64,000 nucleotides of DNA. It comes from Eremomyces bilateralis CBS 781.70 (Eukaryota). The stretch lies in assembly GCA_010015585.1 (NCBI GenBank), contig ML975150.1. One strand, given 5' to 3'. Both the position numbers and the translations under genes were made by a program. This document shows, one piece after another, positions 4,693 through 61,686 of this stretch (the first letter of the stretch is position 1; each line of letters begins with the position of its first letter). The notes beneath the pieces were generated by a model that was given only the letters and a program-made list of their open reading frames with translations, searched no databases and was not told the origin of the DNA.

Positions 4693-5780
4693 ATGAGGTC
4701 TTTTGGCACAAAAATAAGTGGTAATCGAGGGCTAATAAGGAGTTATCGGCCGCTCAAAGAGTTGGGATTTTTCAGGCTGCTGAAGATGGGAAACCAAAGA
4801 CTGAAATCGCGCGGAACTTTCGCGTCTCTCGAAGCGCGGTGTATGGGACTCTAGAGAGGTGGGAAGAACATCAAACCACCGTATCTTTACCCCGTGAAGG
4901 GTGTCCCCATAAGCTATCACGCCCTGACGAACGGCATATCGTCCAAATCACACGTCGATTTCCTAAAATGGAGTATGGAGAGCTCCTCGCAGGTATTTCA
5001 TACCTCCGCAATTCTAGGAAGACTATCTACCGAACCCTTAAGAAATATCACCTTACGAAATGGCGAGCGAAGAAGAGGCCTTACCTGAAGCCCCACCACG
5101 CAAAAGACCGCCTCCGATTTGCCCACGAATTCCTTGAATTCGACTTCTCCCGGACCCACTCCACGGACGAGTGCTCGTATGAGAAGGGGGCGGGCGGTAA
5201 GCAGGTATGGGTATGGCGACTGTACCACGAGGCATATGATCCGCAAATGGTAGAGCCTAAGACCTCTGGCAAGGCCATTTCACAGATGATATGGGGCTCA
5301 ATCTCGCGTGATGGGAGGTCAGGCCTGGTGATCATGGATCGCGACGAAACCTCCGCAAGACAGGGATATTCCGCGAAATCCTACATCGCTACGTTAGAGG
5401 AGGGACTTCTCCCTACGTACGAACCCGGGGATGTTGTTATCCAGGATAACGCAAGGATCCATACGGCTAAAATCACCCAAGAATGGCTGGAGACGCACGG
5501 CATTTGGGTCATCGATTGGCCGGCCAATTCNNNNNNNNNNNNNNNNNNNNNNNNNNNNNNNNNNNNNNNNNNNNNNNNNNNNNNNNNNNNNNNNNNNNNN
5601 NNNNNNNNNNNNNNNNNNNNNNNNNNNNNNNNNNNNNNNNNNNNNNNNNNNNNNNNNNNNNNNNNNNNNNNNNNNNNNNNNNNNNNNNNNNNNNNNNNNN
5701 NNNNNNNNNNNNNNNNNNNNNNNNNNNNNNNNNNNNNNNNGGCGGTAATCAAGGCAAAAGGGTGGCATACGAAATATTAG
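4693..5780 (+). pseudogene. Tc1-type DDE transposase, frameshifted near codon 13; partly covered by an assembly gap
   Basis: ATG 4693 (MRSFGTKISGNRG) is out of frame with NKELSAAQR...HTH...TDECSY...QDNARIH...WPAN...KGWHTKY*; in-frame TAA at 4722 upstream of the main frame. Confidence 0.85.
5531..5740. other. Assembly gap (210 N)
   Basis: Run of N. Confidence 1.
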
Positions 5781-23630: not shown

Positions 23631-25522
23631 ATGGTCATATTCAAGTCAAAACAGCCGGAAGTCCATGGTACATGAAGCCTGCAGAGATTATTGTCGTCCC
23701 CTACAGCTCATATAGACTAACCATGTCTCTTGTGTAGTCCCGACGGATCTCACGACGTGGGACTGGTTGTTCGATTCCGAGTATTCTCCAATATTCCGGT
23801 ATCCTGCGTTCGAGCAAGCCGGATATCAGAATGCGGTCACAAAAGAGCGTGTATCATGGCAGGAGGTGAAGGATTACTCGACCTACGTATCAACCGCCTT
23901 GGTTAAGAAGTATGGGTTACAAGAAGGGAATACCGTTGCGTTGTTCAGCCAGAACAACGTCTGGTACCCGGTTGCAATGCATGGCGCGGTCCGCGCAGGT
24001 ACGCTTCCAGGCTCTCACCAATGTAGACTGCCACTGACTAGGTTGCAGGAGCCAAAGTCTCTGGTGCATCTCCGGCTTATAATGTAGAGGAGATGTCGTA
24101 CGCGCTGAAAATTGGGCAAGCCAAGTTCCTCATGACTGCTCCGTCATCGATGGAGGTAGCCGTAGCTGCCGCTAAGAACGCTGGCATCCCGAAGTCTCAC
24201 ATCTTCCTCCTTGAGGGGAATCTGGATGGATACTCAACCATACATGACTTGATCGCAATCGGCAAGAGTTATGGCGAGAATGGGCAAACTCCTGCGTTCA
24301 AAATCCCAGCCGGAAAGGAGAACAAGGATGTGTGCGCATTCTTGAGCTTCAGTTCTGGGACTACGGGATTGCCAAAAGCTGTAAGTCACAGCTATCCAAG
24401 GATGTGTGTCTGGAGTAGTACTGATTAAAGTAGGTTATGATTGCGCACCAGAACGTCATCGGACAATGTACGCAAATACAACAGATAACACCAGTGGATC
24501 AAAAGAAATCTCTTGCCATATTACCGCTCTTCCACAGTAAGATTCAGTTATTTCAGATATAAGAGTTCAAGCTAATCGTGTTAGTCACTGGTCTCGTTCA
24601 TGGCCTTCATCTTCCAGTGCTATTGAACGCAGAAGTCATTATGTGCCCAACGTTCACAATGGAAGCCATGCTCGATACTGTCGTCGAATACCACTTAAAG
24701 GAGCTTTTGCTAGTTCCACCTATCCTCATCCGCATGGTTCGAGATCCTATCGTGGACAAGTACGATCTGAGACACCTGACCCGCTTCTCCTCCGGCGCAG
24801 CGCCGCTCAGTGAAGAGATCATCCAACAACTGGCGAAGAAGTTCCCGGGAACAGGCTTCAAGCAAGGCTACGGCATGACCGAAAGTTGCTCGTGCATCAC
24901 AGCCCATCCCCCGGAGCTCTACGACTACAAGTACGCGCACACCGTCGGAACCATCGTCGCCAACACCGAGGTTAAGATCATCAAGGAGGACGGAACCGAA
25001 GCCACCTACAACGAACCGGGAGAGATCCTCGCTCGAGGCCCGCAGGTGGTCATGGGATATCTAGACAACCCCAATGCCACGGCCGAAACCTTCGACGCGG
25101 ATGGCTGGTTGCACACCGGCGACCAGGGCGCCATCAACGAGGAAGGGATCATTACGATCCTGGACCGCATCAAGGAAATGATCAAAGTGAAGGGAATCGG
25201 CGTTGCGCCGGCCGAGCTCGAGGATCTGTTGCTCGGCCATGAGAAGGTCGAGGACGTTGCCGTGCTTGGAATCCGCGACGACTATGCTGGCGAGCTGCCG
25301 AAGGCGTTCGTGGTGCCTAAGCCGGGCGTGAAGCCGTCACGGGAGCTGGCTCTGGAGTTGATGAAATATGTCAAGGACAACAAGGTCCGGTATAAGCAAG
25401 TCAAGGTGGTCGAGTTCACCGATGAGATTCCGAAGAGCGCCAGTGGGAAGATCTTGCGGAGAGTGCTGAGAGATGCGGGCGACAGGGGCTTGGTGGTCAA
25501 AGACGAGAAGGCTAGATTGTAA
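23631..25522 (+). CDS. Peroxisomal AMP-dependent acyl-CoA ligase (4-coumarate/phenylacetyl-CoA ligase-like)
   Basis: FSSGTTGLPK, QGYGMTE, LHTGD, PKSASGKILRR; C-terminal PTS1 ARL; four introns. Confidence 0.93.
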
Positions 25523-46225: not shown

Positions 46226-46411
46226 AGTAATATCCCGACGGAACTAGTGACGATTGGACTTGATAACTGGGAATGGTTTTCTGTCAGGATTGCAGTTTGG
46301 GACATCTGCTGCTCGGCCATCAGACGCATCTGAAATGATGGCACACTTTCCTGGATCTACTCAACTTCCTGCGAAACCCCCGCGTCCATTCGATTCAATC
46401 AATCGAAGAGC

Positions 46412-47000
46412 ATGGAGAAAGTCAAGAAAGACGCGTCAAAATTCAGGCCAATCTTACAGGACCTGGACGCCAATCAGGTCTACCTCCTCCACGTTGACCG
46501 CCATCCGGTGCCACACAAAAAGATCATCTTCTTCACAGCGGTGCTCATCAATCTGACCGTCCTCGCACTGCTCATCGGACGTGTCGTCTACGTCTTCCCT
46601 CTGTACCGGGCCATTTTGCTTGGACGAGAGTGGGTACCGGACGCGCAATCGTCAACCACCTCCATCATCATTCGGCGGACCTTCTCCCTTCTCATCGACT
46701 CGCCGTTGATTCAATACGCCTGGCGATGGCCATACACCTTCTTCCTCGAACGATTGCATGGGCAATGGACCAACCCTGCAGCATGGCGCCTGGTTTCTGA
46801 CTTCCGCCTGTCGGAACTGGTTGTGCGCAAATCTCGAAACTGGGGTGCCAAAGACGTCAGAGCTTCTATTGATGAGAGCCCATTGTTCAAATCGCGGGTG
46901 TTCCCGTTTGCTTCGGATCGCTATTTGCGAGAGAAGACTGGATACTTGATGCAAGGGAAGGGTTAGGATCTGGATTACGCCACGATGATTTGGTCGACGC
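46412..47000 (+). pseudogene. Fungal membrane hypothetical protein, truncated
   Basis: YLLHVDRHP..KK.IF plus TM helix...KTGYLMQGKG*DLDY; TAG at 46964 where TGG (W) would fit; sequence diverges afterwards. Confidence 0.6.
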
Positions 47001-47706
47001 GGGCCAAGTTGGAGATGGATTCAGATCGGCCCGTCCTGCTGGTGCCTGACAGGAAGGGTGCATGGGCGGCGCATTCATTGGAGTAGCGCTGGCGGTTCCG
47101 ACACCTCAATTCCTTGTCCATTCACGCGTCAGCATCGTGGGCCGCGCAGATCAACTGGCCAGGCCTCCTTCGGTGCGTGTCCGCCGCATGATGAGATGGC
47201 CTTGATCTGGACGGCGCCGGCATCTTATGCATTCATGGTTAACCACGGCCCCTCGTTGGCCATGTCCGGTAGCCGAGGACCTTAAGGCAAGGAACGTGGT
47301 GCATGACATCAGGGGATAGCACTTCCAAGGTCGTCATGGGTGTTGGTCGGCGAGGTCTCGCCATGATCGCGCACAGGATGGGTGAGAGAGTCGACGCCGG
47401 ATACGAAGTTCACGATTGCAGTCATCAGCGGGAAACAACTCTAGTTTAAGAGGGTTTGTTCTCATGATTCTAATCGTAGCATTGGTATAATCGTAATGAA
47501 CCCCGTTGCTGAACCCCGACTACTCGTACATAGACACACCAGCCTGGAGTGATACAGCCGCGGCTCGTCCATCACTTTGGACAACATTTTGGCCTCCACG
47601 CCAGCTTCTGCATGGTTTGGCAAGAGCGACACACCAGCAGTGGAAGCCGCAATGTGCTGATCGGCCTTGCCGCTTCAAGGATACTGCTTGAGACTCTTCA
47701 CGAGTA

Positions 47707-50309
47707 TCACTCCAGCCGTTTCCAGAGCAGACTGCCCATGGCCAGGACCGAAACGCTCGAAAACGACATCAACGTGCCCGCCGTTGAGCTGTCCATGGTC
47801 AGCGATTGGAACTGGCTGCATGGTTGCGAGAACTTACGGCGTAATGACAATGTCAAATGGATGTAGAAGCCCCGATGCCAGTGCGAGGGCCACCACGTTG
47901 TACGCCATGGAATACCACACGTTGAACTTCGCTTGGGCGGTGACCTTCTTCGAAATTGAAAGCAGCTTGGGCAGCGCGTTGAGATCCGGCGACACGATCA
48001 TGGCGTCCGCAGCACCGGCGTTACTCGCCCAGCTGGACGCCAACAACACCCCCGCATCGGCGGCGGCCTGTGCCAGCGTATCGTTGATGCCGTCGCCGAC
48101 CATGACCACTTTGTGCCCTTTGGATTGCAGGTCGCGGACGCTAGCTTCTTTTTGGTGGGGAGCGGATCGGGCACCGAGGATGGGAATGTCGAGTTCCTTG
48201 GACACCCGTTGGGCTTCCTCGTCGACGTCGCCGGTGAGCTGTAGTCAAGTCAGGGGTGATAATGCTGCGAGATGGAGAACATACAATCAACACATGATAT
48301 CCACGGTTCTTCATCTCGGCAATCACACTCAATGCTTCGTCGCGAACAGTGTCCTGCTTGGTCAGCTCAGCCATCCAAAGCTCGTCAACGACATACCTGC
48401 AGCGCCATGAATCCACCAAACTCCGAGTTGATGGCAAAGTAGACCGCCGTTGTCCGTTCCGATGATGGAATGTCCGCGTCCATCGCGATGCCATGCTCCT
48501 GCAAGAACGCCTCACTCCCAACATGCACATTAACCTCCTCCCCGTCGACCTCCATCCGACACTGAATCCCCGAACTCACGACGGACCCGTTGGCGGCCCT
48601 CCCGCTAAAAGTTCGCTCTTCCATGTTCAGCTGCAGCAGGGAATATTGGAAGACGGCCTTCGCGATGGGATGTCGCTGAGCATGAGGAGCCTCGGCCGCG
48701 GCGAGCATTCGATACACTTGGTGGTTGGTCCATCGACGGTTCGGTTGGAAGTAGACGGAGGAGACCCGCACTTCACCGGTTGTCAGGGTCCCGGTCTTGT
48801 CGAGGACCACATGGGTGATGCCCGCCAATGCCGCCATGGTTCGTGCGCCACGAGAGATGATGACGCCGTTTCGCCAGCCGGCGTCTAGGAGCGTTAGCGA
48901 CGAAATGGCTGTGAGGAAGTGCTTACCGATTCCGATCATGACGGCCGAGGGAACCGCCAAACCCAAACCACACGGGCATGCCGACGCAAGAATGGCCGCC
49001 GACCGCTCCATGGCGTAGACAATCTGGTCCATGGAGAGATCTAAGGGGTGGAGGAGGAGGGACGCCATCGGAAGGGCCGCGATGAAGAGGACCGTCTTGA
49101 CGAAGACGGACAAAAACCATCCGATCCCATCCTCGCTTTCAGTCTTGTAGTCGATAGCCGTGGTGATGCCATTCACCAGCGACATCAGGAATGAATCCGT
49201 CTGTTTCTTGTAGACGATGGCGGTCAGCGGGCTCGACAGGTTCCTGGTACCTGACAGCAAGAAATCGCCCGGCTTCTTCACGATCCGGGCGGACTCCCCG
49301 GTGACCGATGACTCGTCCAGCAGCGATTCTCCATCGATGATGTAACAGTCACACGCAACCAGCGACCCCGGGCGAATCCGAACTCGATCACCCTGTTGCA
49401 AAAGGACCGCCGGCACATATTCCTAGTCGATGTCAGCCAAGCCCTTACAAACACGAGACGACGAACCCGAGATTCTTCCAACCACACCAACGAATCCTCC
49501 GCCTGCAGTCGGAAGAGCGACGTCAACGACGACTGACTCCGTCGGCGAAGAATGACGTGCACCAGACGCCCACCAGTCACGACGACAGCCAGGAAACAGG
49601 TCGACGTGAACCGGGAGCTTCCACCCAGACCGAACAACTTCAAGATCAACAGGGCGAATCCTAACAGGAGCGAAAGACTGATCAAGGCGTCCATGCTCCC
49701 CAGACGCAGCCGACCACGAGGCCACGCGCTCTTATGAATCCAAGCGGCGTCCTTGAACAGCACCCATGCCGTCAACCCCAAGAGGAGGAGCGTGGCGAAC
49801 GACTGGACGCCGTCGTACTGTCGCGCCGACCATGCCATGGCTTCGACGGTCGCAACGACTGACGACACGAACAGCGACGACATGAACCTCCCGCGCAGCA
49901 TCCGCAGCTCCTCCGTCCGTTCCAGCAGCTGAATATGCTGCTCCGGTGTCCCCTGCCCGTCGAGCGTGTCGTATCCCAGCTCTTCAATCGTCTTGCGAAC
50001 GGCGGGCGCGGTGATTTGTTCCGAATCGCAGAAAATGGACGCGCGGCTCAACGGGTACGACACCGAACATCGCAGAATGCCCGGAGTCTTGTGCAATGAG
50101 CTTTCAATATCTTGCGCACACGACACGCAGGTCATGCCCTGGATGTGCACTTTTATGCTCGACGACGACTCCATCTCCTGGTCCTCCGACCCGTCGAAAT
50201 AACCCCGATCAAAGACATTGTATTTGATATCGAATACCTTGATATCCAGATCATCGCACAATTGAATGAACCGATTCATGGCATACGCCATGAAGACGCA
50301 GCAAGCCAT
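47707..50309 (-). CDS. P1B-1 heavy-metal (Cu+/Ag+) transporting P-type ATPase, single HMA domain
   Basis: GMTCVSC, TGES, ACPC, DKTGT, HP, LTGD, GDGIND, YN and MSFSS; five GT-AG introns join ORFs 49278-50309, 48385-49416 and 47834-48205 to ...WKRLE*. Confidence 0.92.
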
Positions 50310-50833
50310 GACGATGGAAGCGCCTCCGGCTGGTGGTCGGACTTCCTGGAACGATTAAGGCTGGGGCAACCATGTTGAAGGTGACGGCTAAATCACGACA
50401 AAATGTTGATAACCAGCACCATGTCATAAAATCCTACTCGACTGCTGATGAGACGACAAATTCACTGTCACCGGCTATCGGAATAGCGGGGCGCAGGTGC
50501 CCATCCGCACGCGCCCATTGGCATGCGCGCCCTGACGCGTGAGGGAAACCTTTTCCCCGCAGTGGAGCCGTGGTGGAAGTGGACCTGGAACATCGCCTTC
50601 ACGGACGGATGGAGTGAAAATACTCAAGTCCAACGCTGCGCGAGCCATCTTGAGACGGCTATGCAGTGCGGGGATGTCGATGGCGCGAGTCATCATGTTG
50701 AGATGGGTTCGTATTTAGGTGGAGCGGTCCACCGCTGTTGGGGACGTTGTTCCCATCGATCCAGAGAATGAGGTTCGTGCTAGGAACGTCACATCATCGA
50801 GACATCCTTTGATAGGAGCGTGCGAATTTGGAG

Positions 50834-53005
50834 ATGGCTATTATCACGGTAGATCATTGTCACCAATGTCGGGGAACAGCCACTGACATCCTCAGACCAC
50901 CACCACGGTGAAGAGCGAGAAGCAGCTCGGAGCGCGAGCCTTGACGGGCACCTTCGACTGGAAGGGTAAGGATATCTCCGGCTTCAACATCCCACGCACT
51001 CACATCCACAGATGTCCTCATCCCCCGCGATGCCGGCACCGGTGTGACCAAATGGTACTACCAGCGCCGCACCATCTACCAGTACGCCCTGGTGGCGGGC
51101 CTGGGTCTTCTGACCTTCTACAATTCGGAGAACCCTCGCATGCGCGCGGCGGCGCTCGGCGTCCTCTTCCCCGGCGCCGGTTTCATCGCTGTCGGAACGA
51201 TCTGGTCCGTCCTCGCCTTCATCGTGTCCACCGCGCTGCTCCCGCTCCTCCTCTTCGCGTGGTTCGCGTCCGGCGGCGTCAGTCTGCCGCTGGCTCTGTA
51301 CCTGGGAGACATCCTCCTCGCCGCCGCCATGGCTGGCAAGCCCGTGCTGGAGCTGGCGGCACCCCTCTGGGTGACCATCGTGGCGGTCGGCATCTCGGTC
51401 ATCACCTTCCGCACCCTGAACGCCAACAACGAGGCCCGCGAGCGAGGCAAGAAGCGGAACGAGTACCTGATCTCGACCGTCCAGGAGATTCAGCAGCAGG
51501 GTGTGTCTTCCCAGGCCGCTCCCGGGACTCGGGAGATGGACCTCGACACTCTGCGATTCCTGCAGTGGACGCTGGAGATGGGCCTTGCTCCTCGGGACGA
51601 CTGGTCCTACCATGATGTGATTGATCAGTTCCAGACCTCCGCCATCCGCTACCAGTTGTACGGTGGTGGCTGGGATCTGGCCCTCTATCAGTCCATCTAC
51701 GCCCCCAACTTCCACGGCTACCTGTCCCTGGCACAGCGGAACCTCATCGAGAAGTCCCTGACCAAGAAGGTCATGAACTTCTGGCAGTGGGAGAGCCTCT
51801 TCGTAAGCATCGCGCCGTAATCACCACGTCCACGCTAACAATCGCAGGGCAAGTTCAAGACCATGGACATCGACCCCATCCGCAAGGACAACATCGTGCG
51901 TCCCCTGAGATGATAAATGACCCGGCTAACCTCCTCGCAGATGGTGTCCGGATATATCCTTTTGTCGTGCGCTCTCTACCAAGCCAACACGGGCGACAAC
52001 CGCTACACCAAGCCCGGCAGCCTCGCGTTCGAGGTCACCCACAACGACGTCTACAAGTACGACATCCAGAGCGTCGCCGAGCTCGTCTTCTTCAACATGG
52101 ACCAGAACCCGTACACCCTATACCCCTGCGAGCCCAACTGGGTCTACGCCATCTGCAACCTCATCGGCGTTATCGGTCTCCAGGCCTCCGACCGCGTTCT
52201 CGGCAACAAGTTCGCCGATCGTATTCGGGAACGGTTCGAGTCGGCTCTCGAGCGCGAGTTCAGCAACGCCGACGGCACCATCCTCCCCATCCGCAGCGAG
52301 CTGACCGGCTTCACCATCCCCGGCCTCGCCGGCACCATCTCCGACGCCAGCGTGTGTATGCAGGGCTCGCCGTACATCCCCGCCATCGCTCACCGCAACT
52401 GGGCCTTCATCAAGCGTGAGAACCTCAAGTACAACAAGGACGGCAAGCTGGAGCTCGTCGGCCTCATCGGTGCGGACAAACTCGACCCCGGCAACTACAA
52501 GGAGGGTGTCGGAGCCATCCGCGCCAACCTTGCCGCCGTGGCCGCCGAGTTCGGTGACGCGCAGATCGCCCACGATCTAGTCAAGCAGGTCGATGAGGAG
52601 TACCATCCCGTCAAGGAGACCAAGAGCGGCTCCCGCAAGAACCAGGGTCTGTCCACCATCCTCCACGGTTCCACCCTCCGCGCTCGCATGTCCGGTTTCC
52701 AGGATTGGTCCAACCTCGTCGGCAAGGGTATTCCGGAGATCACCCGCAGCGGCCCTATCCTCGAGGAGGTTACGTTCCCCGACGTCCTAGTCGCCAAGGC
52801 GTACTCCGTGGACGGCGAGTCCGTCGACCTGGTCCTCTACGACGGCAAGGCCCCGGGTCGCTTCCAGCTCGGCTTCACGCAGCTCCGCCCCGGCGCCACG
52901 TACTCGCTGGGAAAGCAGACCGCGACCGCCGACGAGGAGGGCCACGCCAGCTTTGAGCTGGAGATCCGCGGCCGCACGGCCGTGAAGCTGGAGCCCGTCG
53001 CGTAA
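50834..53005 (+). CDS. Membrane-anchored linalool dehydratase/isomerase-family protein (~662 aa)
   Basis: Exons 50834-50848, 50896-50965, 51012-51802, 51848-51895, 51941-53005; N-terminal hydrophobic helices; DQFQTSAIRYQL, DPIRKDNIMVSGY..LYQANTGDNRY, CEPNWVYAICN. Confidence 0.85.
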
Positions 53006-53222
53006 AAGCGCGGTGTTCTGGCAATGCGGAGTTTCACAGGGATGCATTTCTGTTCTTTGTCGTATGCGGCCTTGGTTTCTGCGGCATCCCGTGCGCGTTT
53101 TGCCTCCGCCTCTTCTCTTTGCCGCTCGAATACGGATTTCTTCGTAACGCATGCACAGCGGCTGCGTCAGTGTACATGGTGGGCTGTCGGATCGTTCCGA
53201 TTCCAAGTCTCCATACTATCTA

Positions 53223-54230
53223 TCAAACCCTAGCGTTCTTCACAAACTCCTTCCAAGTTGTAGGTTTATCCTCCAAAGCATCTAGGCTCTCCTGTAAGGA
53301 AATTCCGTCGAAGAGTCCTGGCTCCTCAATCAGCAAGTGGTTCTCTAGCATCTCCTGGGCCATCGAGTCCGGTAGGAAGCTCTTATACTGATCCGCGGTA
53401 ACTTGAGTGAACTGGATCTTCTTTCAGGTTACCTCTTCAAAGTCAGCGAGGATCTGTGTCACCGGATAGTAGTCGGTGGCTGCAAAGATCCGTTTGCCGT
53501 TGAATGCGTCTGGCTTCTTCAACGCGGGCTTCACAAATTTACCTAAGACGTGTCAGTGTTTCAGCTCTGCGGAAATGTATATAGGAATGCTCACCCATAT
53601 CCTGGACCGTTTCGACAAGGGGGAACTTTGCCTCCTTGCTGACTGGATATGCAAGGCTGTAGGAGCCGTCGTCGCGCTTCCGCAGCATCTGCAGGTAGTT
53701 GGACATGTAGTAACCTGCCACAACAAAAGTGGCTGGGATCCCCAAGGAGCGGATGTGTTCTTCGATTTCAGCCTTGCTGTCGAAGTGTTTCGCGTGTGAG
53801 AGTCGGCCGCTAGAGATTTGGGTCGCGTTCAGCAGAGATGAGAAAATGAGATGCTTGACTCCGACTTCTTTGGAAGCATCAGCGACGGTCTTCCCTTGGG
53901 CTTTCTCAACTTCAGGATCACCAGTCTCCCAGTAGTTAGTCACGAGAAAGGCGGTATCGGAACCCTTGATCGCAGAGATAATCGAGTCCTTGTGGTTCAT
54001 GTCCGCCTGTAACGAGATAACCACGGAGTTTTCCAACCTCGGGATTTTCGCCCATATTACCGTCACAATTTCAACGCCCTTTTTCGCCAGTGCCTGCGCC
54101 TTAGGCTTGGAAGCGTCGCGAGTCACGCCTCGAATGGAGTACTCTTTCGATAGTTGCATCGCCGAGGATCGCGTCGATCACTGAGCCTCCTTGGATGCCA
54201 GTGGCACCGAAGACCGTGAACTTTTGGCAT
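53223..54230 (-). pseudogene. NmrA/HSCARG-like NAD(P)-binding protein, disrupted
   Basis: VFGATGIQGGSVI, RGVTRD, FLVTNYWE, HFDSKAEIE; two frameshifts in the first ~25 codons and an in-frame TGA (EVT*KKI, ~53424). Confidence 0.85.
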
Positions 54231-54952: not shown

Positions 54953-55620
54953 TTAGTTCTTACTCCCGATAACAATGTCCTTTCCGCTGACCGGGTCTTC
55001 GGCATAGATTCGATGATAAACGAATTTCAGAGTGCTACGCGTCCTTCTCACGGCGTCGAGAAGTTCGATGGACAGGTCGTGAAATTCTTCAATTTCTTGA
55101 CGAAACTTGTAGTCGTCATATTGAAAATATCCTCCAACCATTGCTGCGGCGAACAACCGTCGTAATGGATGGGATTTCGGTAACTCTGCGGCGGAACGGA
55201 TGTGCTCGGACGTGAGGAATTTCGTGTTGGGTTCGGTCCTCGAGTTGGGTTCGGTCGTCGAGAATAAATCGTGATATTCGAACTGTTCAGAAGCGTTTTG
55301 ATACGATCTACCACTCGACCTTCCATCCCGGTGACGCTACAGTGGTCCGCAAGTCGGAGGAATTCGACCAGTGAACTGATGGCGTCCTGGGCCGGCAATG
55401 TCCCTAGGCTCACACGTCCCACATATAGCCATTGGAGAAGCATTTCGAAACTTCGAACGGACACCACGCCATCGATCTCGGCCAAGGTGGTCGACTGTTC
55501 GTGGGTCTCCCGAAAATCGCCGCCAAATGTGGCGGCGAAGTACGGTGACTGTTGGCAGATGAGTGCCTCCGTCACCAGGTACTCACGAGAAGATCCGATG
55601 CAAATCTTGACGCAGGCCTG
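54953..55620 (-). pseudogene. BTB/POZ-domain protein, frameshifted
   Basis: LICQQSPYFAATFGGDFRE..SFEMLLQWLY; C-terminal part continues in another frame (ORF 54953-55156). Confidence 0.75.
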
Positions 55621-55984
55621 AGTAGAGTGGAATCATCCTATCTCGATCAGCGACCGGTCATCGGAGAGTGGCGAAATGGCATACGATTTCGCGAAGACAG
55701 TGAAAGGCAAGCGATGGGCCTCCTCCGGACCTGAGCTCGACATATTGGAAGTTGGAAGTCTGAAAGGTGAGCTGGTCGTTCACTCTTGTACGGTCGTGAG
55801 TGTTTGTCACGGATCGAGATTTGGGCCTGGCTGATGGGTGCCTCTGGCACATTTGCAAGCCGGGGACGAGTTCCGCACGGCGGCCAGGCGCACCACGGTC
55901 TCCACTTGTCGAAATCCCGCAGGGGAAAAGAAGTCGTGGGGGAAGTCTGTTGGTTCCCTATTATTGGCCCATGGTGCCCCACGG

Positions 55985-56400
55985 GGTTTGCCCATGCGGC
56001 CACTGTTTGGGCTATTGTAGATTTCCCAGTGCCAGCCAAACCACTCAGCCAGAAGATGCGTTGTGAGGTTTCGCCATTGACCCAATTGTATATGGCGTGG
56101 AGGAGATCGGTACGGGTTCTGGGGAGACAGGTTGGTTCGTGCTCCCGCTTGCGTGTGCTAAACGGTGCGTCCGCAGCAATGGGTAGGATCTTCTGAAGTA
56201 AATCGTTGTGTTCTAATTATGCTTTCAGTTAATCTGTCATCATCGCAAGTTCTAATGCAGAATTACTCACTTGAAGTAGTCTCACTGGAGGCAAAAGTTA
56301 TACTTCCAAGGTTGATGCCAGCAAAGTTCTGGCCTCCATCGGTTCCGGAGTCCGGACGTGTTATGGATGGCAAGATGGTGGGGTAAAGGGCCGCTAGTCA
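55985..56400 (-). pseudogene. NACHT (HET-E-like NLR) N-terminal/P-loop fragment
   Basis: LPIAADAPFS..EHEPTCLPRTRTDLL..IYNW..RIFWLSGLAGTGKSTIAQTVA; similarity stops just after Walker A. Confidence 0.85.
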
Positions 56401-56847: not shown

Positions 56848-57416
56848 TGAGCGAGGTTGCTGTGCGTTGCTGGAGGTTCGAGCTAGACCAACGGTAATGC
56901 TATTCTCGCTATAATACGAGTATTAAGATCAATATTGAGTTCTAAGGGTTGCCACCTGTGAAGAGCTCCGATAGACGGCGCAAGGGCGCGATATGATAGT
57001 TGAATTATGTCATACACTGACGATACTACCCCACCATGAATGTCCTCAGGTGCTCAAGGATCCGCAATTCGGCAAAGGTATCTATTCCTGTGCGACTGAT
57101 TATCCGGCTCCCCAAACCAGTAATATCAGAGGTCTCGAATGGTTTTCAGGTCTCCCCGTTAAATTACCTGTATACCGCTGGAACACGTTGGTTTGCAAGG
57201 TTTCATGGACTGCAACTGTCCTTTGACAAGGTTTGACCGAATTCTTGAGAGCTCGCGCTAGACCCCGATAACAAGTAATAACCCCAAGCAGAACCTCCTA
57301 TCGACAGCGTTTAGAACCCTATCCTTTGGGCTTTGAGTCTTTACCCCGAGTCTATGGAGCGTGCATGATTTTCACAGAACACTAGAATCAAGAGTTGCGG
57401 CCAAAGTACTAGCAAC

Positions 57417-60400
57417 ATGCCTGAACGGGGGATCAGAATTGCTATTGACGTATGCCCTCACTTTCCCAGCCTTGTAGCAAATACTGACGAAAAACAGCGG
57501 GGTGGGACCTTCACTGACTGTGTTGGGAACCCCGGGACAGGGAGGATGGAAGACGATGTTGTAGTGAAGCTCTTATCTGTGGATCCAAGCAATTACGATG
57601 ATGCACCCTTGGAAGGGATTCGCAGATTATTGTCTAAGTTCACAGGAAAGGAAATCCCTCGTGGTGAGCCGCTGGATACCTCCAATATCGAGAGCATACG
57701 AATGGGAACGACGGTCGCAACCAATGCACTATTAGAGCGAAAGGGGGAGGACATCGCCCTGGTAGTGACCAAAGGCTTCAAAGACTGCTTAGAGATCGGC
57801 AATCAATCCCGCCCAAACATCTTCGATCTCGCCATCCGGAAACCGGAAGTACTCTACAAGCGAGTTGTCGAGATCGACGAAAGAGTGACTTTAGAAGACT
57901 ATGCGGAAGATCCGGAACGGACCAAGACAGAGTCCAAGCCGATTGAAGAGGCTGGAAAAGATGCTCAGCTTGTCCGTGGCCTTTCGGGCGAAGCAGTGCG
58001 AATTCTTAAACAGCCAGTTGAAGACGAGATACGGTCCCGGTTGAAGGAGGTATATGACTCTGGCTTGAGGAGTATAGCAGTCTGTTTGATGCATGGGTAC
58101 ACGTTCCCTCACCACGAGGCCCTCGTGGGTAAAATTGCCGAGGACATCGGGTTTGAGCATGTCAGTCTCAGTCATCAGCTCATGCCTATGATCAAACTAG
58201 TCCCTCGTGCAACGTCTGCCTGTGCCGACGCTTATCTTACCCCGGCAATCAAGAAGTACATCTCCGGATTCGCCGCAGGGTTTGCAGGAGGCATTGGCAC
58301 AGAAGCTGTCAAGAAGCAAGCGGGCGCGAAAGCTGCCAGGTGCGAATTCATGCAATCGGACGGTGGTCTAGTCGATGTCGACAAATTTTCTGGCTTGCGA
58401 GCTGTTCTATCCGGTCCGGCAGGAGGCGTCGTGGGCTACGCTTTGACATCGTACGATCGTAAAACCAACATTCCTGTCATCGGATTTGACATGGGGGGAA
58501 CGAGCACTGATGTCAGTCGTTACGGAGAGGGGAGATATGATCATGTTTTTGAAACCACGACTGCAGGAGTAACAATTCAGTCTCCTCAACTTGATATCAA
58601 TACGGTTGCGGCAGGCGGAGGCTCGCGGCTGTTCTTCAGGAATGGGCTCTTTGTGGTGGGCCCTGAGTCTGCGAGTGCCCATCCTGGACCCGCGTGCTAT
58701 AGGAAGGGCGGTCCCTTGACGATAACGGATGCAAATCTCTTCCTTGGACGTCTCCTGCCTGACTTCTTCCCAAAGATCTTCGGAAAGAATGAAGATGAGG
58801 GCCTTGATACGGAAGCCAGTGAGCAGTTGTTCAAACAGCTGACAGATGACATAAACTTGGAGGTTGCTGGAGATGACAAGTCTAAAGCGATGTCCATCGA
58901 TGAGGTCGCATTTGGATTTATCAAAATTGCAAACGAGACGATGACACGACCGATCCGTTCGCTGACAGAAGCCCGAGGGCACGATACATCGAGGCACCGA
59001 CTTGCTACTTTCGGAGGCGCTGGAGGGCAGCATGCCGTTGCAATTGCTGAAGCATTGGGTATCTCTCAGATCTTGATCCACCGATATTCTTCAGTGCTGT
59101 CGGCTTACGGCATGGCACTTGCCGATGTCGTAGATGAGAGACAAGAACCGGATTCAAAGGTGTGGTCCGATGATGATAAAGAGATTCGGGATTATTTGAA
59201 AAATAAAGTGGAAGATCTTAAAGCGAAGGCAAGGGCTGGACTCCGTGAGCAAGGCTTCTCAGTCGAGAATATCGTCTTTGAAGAATACCTCAATCTCCGA
59301 TACCGAGGAACGGAGTCAGCGCTCATGATCATCCGTCCCTCGAAAGAAGTCGCTGAGAAGGAGCATGGCGGCGATGACTGGGCGTTCGGAAATGCCTTTG
59401 TCAAGCAGCACGACCAGGAGTTTGGGTTCACTTTGCCTGACCGTGACATTATCGTAGATGATGTACGAGTACGTGGCATTGGAAAGACGTTTGAAGGCTT
59501 GGAACAGACCGTGGATGACCAGTTGAAGGAGATCAAGCCGAAAGACGTTAGCAGAGAAGAAAAGCGATACGGCGAGCGCAAAGTTTACTTCGAAGGGGGA
59601 AGACGCGACACACCCCTCTACAAGATCGAGGATCTCGAGATCGGAGACCGGGTCAAGGGTCCAGCCATACTCGCAGATGGAACCCAGACAATTGTTGTCA
59701 CTCCAGGGGCCAGTGCCCTTGTTATCAAGACTCACGTTATCATCAACATTGGAGAGAGTGAGTTCAAGGACGTGAAGGTCAACACTAAAGAAGTCGACCC
59801 GATCATGCTGAGCATCTTTGCGCACCGCTTCATGGCCATCGCGGAGCAAATGGGACGAGCGCTCCAGAAGACGAGCGTGAGCACCAATGTCAAAGAACGA
59901 TTGGATTACTCATGCGCGTTGTTTGACGAGGATGGTGCTTTGGTCGCAAATGGTATATACTGATGCCACAGAATCTTTGGTGCAACCGCTAACTGCAGCA
60001 GCTCCTCACCTGCCTGTCCATCTCGGGTCCATGTCAACCTGTGTCAAGAAGCAAGCAGCAATCTGGAAAGGCAAGCTGAAAAGAGGGGATGTTTTGGTCT
60101 CGAATCACCCGATGTTTGGTGGCACTCATCTTCCAGATATTACCGCGATAACGCCAGCTTTCAACGGAGACAAAATCGTGTTTTATGTTGCCTCGAGAGC
60201 CCATCATGCTGACATTGGGGGGATTCTCCCTGGTTCCATGCCTCCAAACTCGAGAGAACTGTACCAGGAGGGTGCAGCGATCAAGTCAGAGAAATTGGTA
60301 TCAGAAGGCAAGTTCAACGAGAAGCGAATGGTCGAGCTATTGTACGATGAACCAGCCCAATATCCTGGATGCAGTGGCTCGAGAAGTCTTGCGGACAACA

Positions 60401-61686
60401 TCAACGACTTGAAGGCCCAGGTGGCAGCAAACCAGAAAGGAATCAATTTGATCAGCACTCTGATTGAGGACTACGGCGAGGATGTGGTGAAGTTCTACAT
60501 GAAGAGCATCCAAGATAATGCGGAGATGAGCGTCAAAGCCCTTCTTAAGAATGTCTATAAGCGGTTCGAAGGCAAAGATCTATCAGCCACCGACTACATG
60601 GATGATGGAAGCCCTATCAAACTGAAAGTCAAGATTGATCGTGAGAAAGGAGAAGCTGAGTTCGACTTCACTGGAACTGGACCAGAAGTCTACGGTACGA
60701 GTTACTATATCATCATTTGAACAACACAACTAACACGATACTAGGCAATATCAACGCACCAGAGGCCATCACGTACTCTGCGATCATCTACTGTCTTCGT
60801 TGTCTGGTTTCTGAGGACATCCCCCTGAATCAAGGATGTCTGAAGCCAATTCATGTCAAGATCCCGAAGAAGTCCTTCCTTTCTCCCTCAGACAAAGCCG
60901 CTGTTGTAGGGGGCAACGTCCTCACGGTATGTTTGTCTACATGAATACCGCTGACATGTCGCTAACAGGACGCAGAGTCAGCGAGTCACCGATGTGGTAC
61001 TAAAAGCCTTCCAAGCCTGTGCAGCTTCTCAGGGTGACTGCAACAATTTGACCTTCGGCTTCGGTTCAAACGCAGTAGGGAAAGCCGCCGTGAAAGGCTT
61101 CGGATACTACGAGACCATTGCAGGCGGCTCCGGGGCAGGACCGACCTGGAATGGCACATCCGGAGTCCATGTACACATGACCAATACACGCATCACCGAT
61201 GCCGAGGTCTTTGAGCGTCGTTACCCCGTCATCCTACGCGAATTCAACCTTCGCGCTGGAAGCGGTGGGCGAGGACAACATCATGGAGGCGACGGAGTCA
61301 TCCGAGATATTGAATTCCGCATCCCAGTTCAAGTCAGCATCCTCAGCGAGCGCCGTGTTTACCATCCATACGGCCTGGAAGGAGGTGAAGACGCAGTTTG
61401 CGGGATGAACGTGTGGGTCCGAAAGGTGGAACGGAGCGACGAGAATTCCGACAGCGTCGCTTCAACGACCATCGTCGATGACGATGAGGTGAGGTATATC
61501 AACTTGGGCGGCAAGAACACGGCGGATATGAAACCGGGGGAGAGAATCATCGTTATGACGCCCGGAGGAGGTGGTTGGGGTCCGTTTGGCGAGGAGAGCA
61601 AGGCGCAGAAGCAAGCGGATCCGAAGCTGGCTTGGAGAAAGGGTAGTGTTGCGCTGCGCCAGGATATGGCGGAGGCATCCGCATGA
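57417..61686 (+). CDS. OXP1: 5-oxoprolinase (ATP-hydrolysing), fused hydantoinase A/B
   Basis: [56 protein letters not shown]; four introns. Confidence 0.97.

Follow-up and report, generated by a model that had tools for sequence, protein, structure and literature searches.

The sequence analysed here is a window of 64,000 nucleotides from contig ML975150.1 of the dothideomycete Eremomyces bilateralis CBS 781.70 (Eremomycetales), and all positions are those of the window. Between positions 50834 and 53005, on the plus strand, the window carries a gene of five exons whose four introns are removed by GT..AG joining. The spliced exons amount to 1989 nt, that is, 662 codons and a stop, in frame throughout, as the original prediction had proposed for a protein of about this length. 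The translation is identical at 662/662 residues to a deposited protein, P0001 ('hypothetical protein P152DRAFT_121713 [Eremomyces bilateralis CBS 781.70]'). The parts of the gene are given below, X1 to X4 being public runs whose contigs were compared with the window.

50834..50848, plus strand: exon 1, start codon and residues 1-5; first in-frame ATG past a stop, border backed by spliced contigs
50849..50895, plus strand: intron 1, 47 nt, GT..AG; absent from the contigs of X1, X2, X3 and X4
50896..50965, plus strand: exon 2, residues 6-28 and base 1 of codon 29; borders fit the spliced contigs
50966..51011, plus strand: intron 2, 46 nt, GT..AG; absent from the contigs of X1, X2 and X4
51012..51802, plus strand: exon 3, residues 29-292; transmembrane module, linker helix and start of the barrel
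51803..51847, plus strand: intron 3, 45 nt, GT..AG, with a CTAAC branch-point-like motif; absent from the contigs of X1-X4
51848..51895, plus strand: exon 4, residues 293-308; the D-N-I of the DNIM motif lies at its end
51896..51940, plus strand: intron 4, 45 nt, GT..AG, with a CTAAC branch-point-like motif; absent from the contigs of X1 and X2
51941..53005, plus strand: exon 5, residues 309-662 and stop; bulk of the barrel and C-terminal beta domain, Pfam Ldi match at E 8e-56

A search of public runs found 85% of the sampled words in X1 and four runs from a second organism, with X2, X3 and X4 among those compared. The X1 contig (13.7 kb, depth 289) extends beyond the linalool-isomerase-like gene, is 100% identical to the window and lacks all four introns at the exact predicted borders. 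Contigs from the second organism (95-99% identity to the window) lack four introns in X2, three in X4 and two in X3, again at the predicted borders. The contigs carry neither transcript ends nor expression levels, and the runs are read as RNA-derived on the sole basis that their contigs skip GT..AG introns, the 'RNA' label of the runs being a guess. The gene is real, expressed and correctly spliced, and the splicing that had been predicted is borne out at all four introns by both X1 and X2.

The product is a member of the linalool dehydratase/isomerase (Ldi) family. Two stretches match the Pfam Ldi profile (PF18566, 318 positions): exon 5 over profile positions 75-305 (E 8e-56, 190.3 bits) and, over positions 1-51, the end of exon 3 (E 1.9e-11, 44.5 bits); both matches exceed the gathering cut-off of 26.1 bits and lie far beyond chance. 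No family other than Ldi was matched in the Pfam scan of the gene, and P0001 has a precomputed PF18566 label. When PDB sequences were searched, the single sequence of exon 5 recovered LinD, the Ldi of Castellaniella defragrans, at E 0.011, and a profile of 35 homologs recovered it at E 3e-22. An AlphaFold2 model built with the alignment of the 35 homologs (pLDDT 91.7, pTM 0.90) divides the part of the chain behind the membrane module into two domains.

51512..52747, plus strand: predicted (alpha/alpha)6 barrel, the catalytic domain; residues 196-577, across introns 3 and 4
52757..52996, plus strand: C-terminal beta-sandwich domain; residues 581-660, eight predicted strands (secondary structure of the model)

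The predicted barrel can be superposed on LinD. Membership in the Ldi family, with a LinD-type (alpha/alpha)6 barrel, is thus fully supported by profile and model alike, as had been expected of a LinD homolog. When two copies of residues 196-662 were modelled with the homolog alignment, the oligomer score was 0.00, a result that is neutral as to oligomerisation. Other (alpha/alpha)6 barrels, namely the unsaturated glycosyl hydrolases GH105/GH88, GH76, cellobiose 2-epimerase and GH127, are 6-12% identical to the Eremomyces protein, have no Pfam match and score well under LinD; they are not functional relatives. A glycoside-hydrolase-like reading (GH127, GH105) was set aside, the similarity being at the level of the fold only.

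The three motifs that had been pointed out in the reading frame (DNIM, LYQxxTGxxRY and C-E-P-x6-C-N) are all present and align with LinD counterparts.

52127..52159, plus strand: C371-E-P-N-W-V-Y-A-I-C380-N381, residues 371-381; counterpart of LinD CEPDNYFVQCN (C171-E172...C180-N)
51974..52006, plus strand: LYQANTGDNRY, residues 320-330; counterpart of LinD LYQLVTGSRRY

The third motif, D-N-I-M (residues 306-309), is interrupted by intron 4 and aligns with LinD ENIM, which contains M125. The LinD residues mapped onto the Eremomyces protein are C101, G107, M125, H129, C171, E172 and C180 (LinD numbering per the 5g1u chain). The profile alignment begins at LinD residue 96 in the 5hlr chain and 97 in the 5g1u chain, so that C48 lies outside. 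D39 and Y45, which are assumed here to be LinD residues near the N-terminus, also lie before its start. The LinD structures are reportedly described by Nestl (2017) and Weidenweber (2016), and the titles of PDB entries name the LinD variants C171A, C171S, C180A, M125A and G107T. The catalytic cysteine pair is intact: C371 and C380 align with LinD C171 and C180 and, like E372, P373, N381, I308 and M309, are invariant in 35/35 aligned fungal and bacterial long forms. Within LYQANTGDNRY, D327 is kept in 35/35 homologs, Y321 in 34/35 and Y330 in 32/35. Apart from the C371/C380 pair, the only cysteines of the Eremomyces protein are C318 and C447. In LinD, two reduced cysteines are described as catalytic and C48-C101 as a disulfide that caps the active site, according to an excerpt of PMC6600392. 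The C101 column holds Thr both in the profile consensus and in P0001, and the C48-C101 cap therefore cannot form in the Eremomyces protein.

Ahead of the barrel lie the N-terminal hydrophobic helices that had been noticed at the outset, four to five of them within residues 40-165 as judged from hydropathy and the model.

51044..51421, plus strand: transmembrane module; residues 40-165, four to five hydrophobic helices

The helices of the model span residues 40-66, 70-89 (broken at a PGAG motif), 92-115 and 119-135, followed by a long helix at 144-194, and the N-terminus of the Eremomyces protein is a multi-helix membrane module rather than a cleavable signal peptide. The motifs LFPGAGF and FAWFxxGG of this module are common to fungi and bacteria, and 33-35 of the 35 homologs retain R48, P82, G83, G85, W112, G116 and P121. 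Both flanks of the module are rich in lysine and arginine, with four such residues in 30-48 and five in 166-185. By the positive-inside rule, under which positively charged flanks tend to remain on the inner side of a membrane, the chain would cross the membrane an even number of times and leave its catalytic domain in the cytosol. The barrel and the C-terminal beta domain are most likely cytosolic, as predicted for the linalool isomerase (Lis) of Thauera. Were all five hydrophobic segments to span the membrane, the catalytic domain would lie on its opposite side.

Although the Eremomyces protein shares family, barrel and cysteine pair with LinD, as the original prediction had it, its full-length match is Lis. 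Thauera Lis (ENO87364) is 34% identical to it over 598 residues (E 5e-114), whereas C. defragrans LinD (PDB 5g1u, 5hlr, 5i3t and others) is 18-19% identical. The alignment with Lis joins Eremomyces residues 73-660 to Lis residues 56-645 and runs from the second hydrophobic helix through the last beta strand, while that with LinD stops at residue 577; the C-terminal beta domain is found in Lis and has no LinD counterpart. LinD also lacks the transmembrane module, and its active site sits at a subunit interface. The lengths are alike (644-647 aa for Lis, 662 aa for the Eremomyces protein), and the two proteins share the order of their parts, namely an N-terminal transmembrane bundle, the Ldi barrel and the C-terminal beta domain, as well as CEPNWVYxxCN and KDNIM motifs. 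In the published account of Lis (PMC4791888), the enzyme has 644 aa and shares 20% identity with Ldi; four transmembrane helices are predicted within residues 1-139, ahead of a cytosolic domain, and geraniol and linalool are isomerised in the presence of a reductant. In excerpts of a second paper, LinD is a soluble periplasmic homopentamer with a signal peptide, and Lis is stated to catalyse no (de)hydration (PMC6013536). By its sequence, the Eremomyces protein is a Lis-type long form and not a LinD-type short form. The Eremomyces gene differs from Thauera lis in having a eukaryotic host, four spliceosomal introns and a clade of fungal relatives.

When the matches to the Eremomyces protein are ranked, those at ranks 1-48 are eukaryotic and, from rank 49, they are bacterial metagenome-assembled genomes or unlabelled. 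Forty-six of the 48 are named, and all of these (46/46) belong to Ascomycota: Dothideomycetes, Chaetothyriales, Sordariomycetes, Leotiomycetes, a lichen fungus, Aspergillus and Penicillium, with class membership judged by name and two species looked up. Several of these relatives come from what are presumably rock-inhabiting or dung fungi. Such origins are no obvious fit to the detoxification of plant terpenes. The bacterial hosts include Binataceae, sphingomonads, Steroidobacter, Parvibaculum, mycobacteria and Nocardia, and, given this wide range, the family is not confined to anaerobic denitrifiers. The long form is the common form, since 122 of the best 150 of 867 representatives (E<=0.001) have at least 580 aa; CEPx6CN is present in 118 of these 122, and at least three hydrophobic peaks in the first 200 residues in 104.

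A bacterial genome scan with the homolog alignment confirmed 433 loci among 458 pattern matches and retained 80 for analysis; one of them (L054), in Thauera linaloolentis 47Lol, holds the 647-aa ORF of Lis. A FastTree phylogeny was built from 131 rows, made up of 70 bacterial ORFs, 52 fungal-labelled sequences and nine unlabelled ones; 10 of the 80 bacterial loci were omitted for want of a 560-760-aa ORF with the motifs. In this unrooted tree, all fungal rows, together with the unlabelled P0122 and P0125, fall on one side of a branch with a support of 99. A quick IQ-TREE run on 43 rows, also unrooted, places 17 fungal rows and P0122 in a clade with a support of 100, and the P0125 group adjoins the split between fungi and bacteria. 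The closest named relatives of that group are Binataceae (47% identity), and 914 proteins match P0125 at E<=1e-40. Against the bacteria, the fungal members thus form one clade in these unrooted trees. The fungal sequences divide further into at least three clades; the Eremomyces protein groups with Dothideomycetes and Chaetothyriales, and copies from Exophiala spinifera fall in two of the fungal clades. The fungi fall in a single clade, every name among the eukaryotic matches is that of an ascomycete, and the bacterial radiation is very large; this distribution is consistent with a single old transfer, whose direction, from bacteria to fungi, is likewise suggested by the distribution. A fungal clade set against so large a bacterial radiation offers a clean case in which to study a probable old gene transfer between domains.

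In bacteria, the neighbours of the homologs are partly catabolic. Twenty of the 80 loci were hand-picked for taxonomic spread, and 107 neighbouring ORFs within 4.5 kb were scanned. At least one neighbour of a catabolic type was present at 12/20 loci, a raw count for families that are common generally and one with no background control. Beside the homolog lie an aldehyde dehydrogenase (6/20 loci), an alcohol dehydrogenase or SDR (5/20), an acyl-CoA ligase (5/20), an enoyl-CoA hydratase (3/20), a CoA transferase (2/20) or a biotin carboxylase (2/20, both Thauera). This fits an isomerase that passes a primary allylic alcohol to oxidation and CoA activation. Thauera lis itself is preceded by genes for a biotin carboxylase and an enoyl-CoA hydratase, whereas the Eremomyces gene has no neighbours of the Atu/Liu type.

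The preferred reading, to which a probability of about 0.6 is assigned, is that the Eremomyces protein, by cofactor-free thiol chemistry at the membrane surface, moves the hydroxyl of lipophilic allylic isoprenoid alcohols in a 1,3-shift. The bundle of four (possibly five) N-terminal hydrophobic helices would anchor the protein in the membrane, and the barrel would work without a cofactor, in line with the mechanism put forward for LinD and Lis. Protonation of the substrate hydroxyl, on an allylic isoprenoid alcohol, would fall to the reduced C371/C380 pair, close to which lie E372 and M309. Water would then re-add at the far end of the allyl cation, and the net result would be a 1,3-hydroxyl shift of the type that links geraniol and linalool; longer homologs, such as farnesol and nerolidol, may be interconverted as well. 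The expected outcome would be isomerisation and not a diene-forming dehydration, the position of LinD His129 being occupied by an aromatic residue as in Lis. Physiologically, the enzyme may serve the turnover or detoxification of lipophilic terpenoid alcohols. On the other side, no activity of a fungal member was found in print, an identity of 34% to Lis leaves room for a different substrate, and the Eremomyces gene is without the catabolic neighbours seen in bacteria.

One alternative keeps the barrel and its thiol chemistry and changes the lipophilic substrate, which could be an endogenous isoprenoid or sterol intermediate of the membrane or some other alcohol, allylic or tertiary; the transmembrane module would then bring it in from the bilayer instead of serving as an anchor alone. 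Between fungi and bacteria this module is as conserved as the barrel, as the seven residues kept in 33-35 of 35 homologs indicate, and the whole-chain pTM of 0.90 suggests that the bundle is packed against the barrel in a fixed position. The occurrence of at least three paralog clades in Ascomycota and, at one bacterial locus (L008), of a UbiA prenyltransferase adjoining the homolog would also suit such a role. However, the sole characterised long-form member uses C10 alcohols, and the genes beside the bacterial homologs encode catabolic dehydrogenases and CoA ligases, not proteins of sterol or quinone metabolism. A different substrate of this kind is unlikely, although it is the likeliest of the alternatives.

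A second alternative would extend the 1,3-hydroxyl shift to LinD-like bifunctionality, in which the enzyme would also hydrate and dehydrate, interconverting linalool and dienes of the myrcene type. The fold and the cysteine pair are shared with LinD, and E372 and M309 are conserved. LinD His129 is taken here to be catalytic and needed for dehydration. In the profile alignment its column corresponds to Y313 of the Eremomyces protein and to W in Lis, both aromatic; among the 35 homologs the column holds Y, F or W, and His in 0/35. The same holds for the 117 sequences bearing [DEN]N[IV]MxxG among the best 150 of 867 representatives, in which F occurs 49 times, Y 35 times, W 31 times, N and I once each, and His never. 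Two features of LinD, His129 and the Cys101 of the capping disulfide, are thus replaced by Tyr and Thr in the Eremomyces protein, and the latter replacement precludes the C48-C101 cap. The protein is, in addition, far nearer to Lis, an isomerase that reportedly does not dehydrate. Because Lis is closer and because His129 gives way to an aromatic residue as in this non-dehydrating enzyme, isomerase is favoured over dehydratase. Of the hydratase/isomerase activity that was originally suggested, the isomerase part is therefore the likelier candidate function and the hydratase/dehydratase part the less likely one; going by residue identities, dehydratase activity seems less likely, and a fully bifunctional enzyme is rather improbable.

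A third alternative sees a tailoring enzyme of a fungal secondary-metabolite gene cluster for terpenoids or meroterpenoids, for which a terpenoid-modifying chemistry would be suitable. The nearest neighbours of the gene were identified by Pfam scan.

Ends at about 50354, minus strand: Cu P-type ATPase (HMA and E1-E2 ATPase domains), upstream and divergent
53223-54177, minus strand: NmrA-like NAD(P)-binding gene, 217 bp downstream and convergent

The NmrA-like gene would suit a cluster by its proximity. Beyond it lie a BTB protein, an NPHP3_N/NACHT-like piece and then an oxoprolinase. Among 29 ORFs scanned with Pfam over the whole 64 kb, however, there was no terpene synthase, prenyltransferase, P450, PKS or NRPS, and the only family of a biosynthetic type is that of an AMP-binding ORF at 24563-25519, about 25 kb off. 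With no core biosynthetic family in the window, the gene is therefore not part of a biosynthetic cluster. The other window genes are of a housekeeping kind (Cu-ATPase, oxoprolinase, SHMT, clathrin light chain), and a role in a cluster is very improbable. The neighbours in the window give no pointer to sterol substrates or to the detoxification of plant terpenes. A decayed, non-catalytic relic or an annotation artefact is effectively refuted by the intact frame, the exact splicing in contigs of two organisms, the 43 columns, catalytic motif included, that are invariant across 35 homologs, and the high-confidence model.

Of the cofactor-free enzymes of this family, which shift or remove hydroxyls on unactivated allylic alcohols, only LinD and Lis have been characterised. 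No functional study of a fungal Ldi-family member was found in the literature, a provisional result in that most subscription journals lay outside the search. Anwar et al. (2019) are reported to have carried out an in-silico docking of an Aspergillus niger 'linalool dehydratase-isomerase'. The claim that the fungal gene has no known function holds to the extent that no fungal activity was seen in print; in UniRef, however, the Eremomyces protein and dozens of ascomycete orthologs are already named by domain ('Linalool dehydratase/isomerase domain-containing protein'). The Ldi domain in fungi is thus part of public annotation, and the value here lies in function rather than in discovery of the domain. 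According to PMC6013536, the chemistry of LinD and Lis attracts industrial interest as a source of dienes and chiral terpene alcohols.

A 2018 review describes the conversion of geraniol to linalool by yeasts and states that the yeast and fungal enzymes responsible had not been identified (PMC6524682). Monoterpene-transforming fungi are listed in a further review, of which part was available (PMC4097962). A 'geraniol isomerase' appears in a pathway scheme for Meyerozyma guilliermondii as a pentamer of ~44 kDa, with no assay in the passages concerned (PMC7789178). The Eremomyces gene and its many ascomycete orthologs are candidates for the fungal geraniol-to-linalool activity. If active, they would give the family its first eukaryotic members of assigned function, and proteins native to an aerobic eukaryote could be of benefit in biocatalysis. 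As a wider and decidedly tentative proposal, ascomycete Lis-type proteins could be the enzymes behind the long-known fungal interconversion of geraniol, nerol and linalool, perhaps also of farnesol and nerolidol; they would have descended from one ancient bacterial transfer into at least three paralog clades, and the transmembrane module would act as a functional gate for lipophilic substrates from the bilayer rather than as a plain anchor. The Lipomycetales yeast Kockiozyma suomiensis carries a homolog.

The Ldi-family gene (50834-53005), which encodes the homolog of Lis-type linalool isomerase, lies between a copper-transporting ATPase gene and a gene for an NmrA-like protein. The features around it, and those found elsewhere in the window, are as follows.

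4725-5777 (+), Tc1/mariner-like transposase ORF (HTH_Tnp_Tc3_2; weak DDE_3 match, below the cut-off)
46300-50354 (-), copper-transporting P-type ATPase gene (HMA and E1-E2 ATPase domains, Pfam scan)
50703-50771, upstream ORF 1 in the leader of the Ldi-family gene (ATG at 50703, stop at 50769-50771)
ending at 50812, upstream ORF 2 in the same leader, a short ORF
53223-54177 (-), gene for an NmrA-like NAD(P)-binding protein (two ORF pieces, Pfam scan)
55051-56216 (-) and 57369-61683 (+), BTB-domain ORF, NPHP3_N (NACHT-associated) ORF and 5-oxoprolinase gene (Pfam scan)

The NmrA-like gene, whose two ORF pieces are probably separated by one intron, is convergent with the Ldi-family gene, and the two stop codons are 217 bp apart. 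In the contigs from the second organism (X2-X4), the match to the window ends at 53059/53060, 54 nt past the stop codon of the Ldi-family gene; beyond this point, the contigs run on, with unrelated sequence to both sides. The 3' flank of the Ldi-family gene is thus structurally different in the window organism and the second organism. Further downstream, the 5-oxoprolinase gene is divided by introns into at least three ORF pieces.

On the upstream side, the Ldi-family gene and the copper ATPase gene are divergently transcribed from a common intergenic region of 479 bp (50355-50833). Two short upstream ORFs (50703-50812) are found in the leader of the Ldi-family gene, and the leader with both of them is covered without a break by the contig of public run X1, which is identical to the window.

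The GC3 of the Ldi-family coding sequence is 0.88, compared with 0.54-0.77 in five neighboring ORFs (overall GC of the entire window, 0.526), and may reflect the codon bias of a well-expressed gene.

Several bacteria carry paired long-form genes of the Ldi family 3-20 kb apart: at the homolog loci L052 (10050-12137) and L074 (10323-12269), and at L001 and L002, which share a contig. In a Binataceae MAG (L008, 9906-12482, minus strand), the ORF directly after the Ldi homolog carries both UbiA prenyltransferase and enolase-superfamily domains. This UbiA neighbor, seen in only one of the 20 loci scanned, points to a possible link of the Ldi homolog to prenyl-lipid metabolism.
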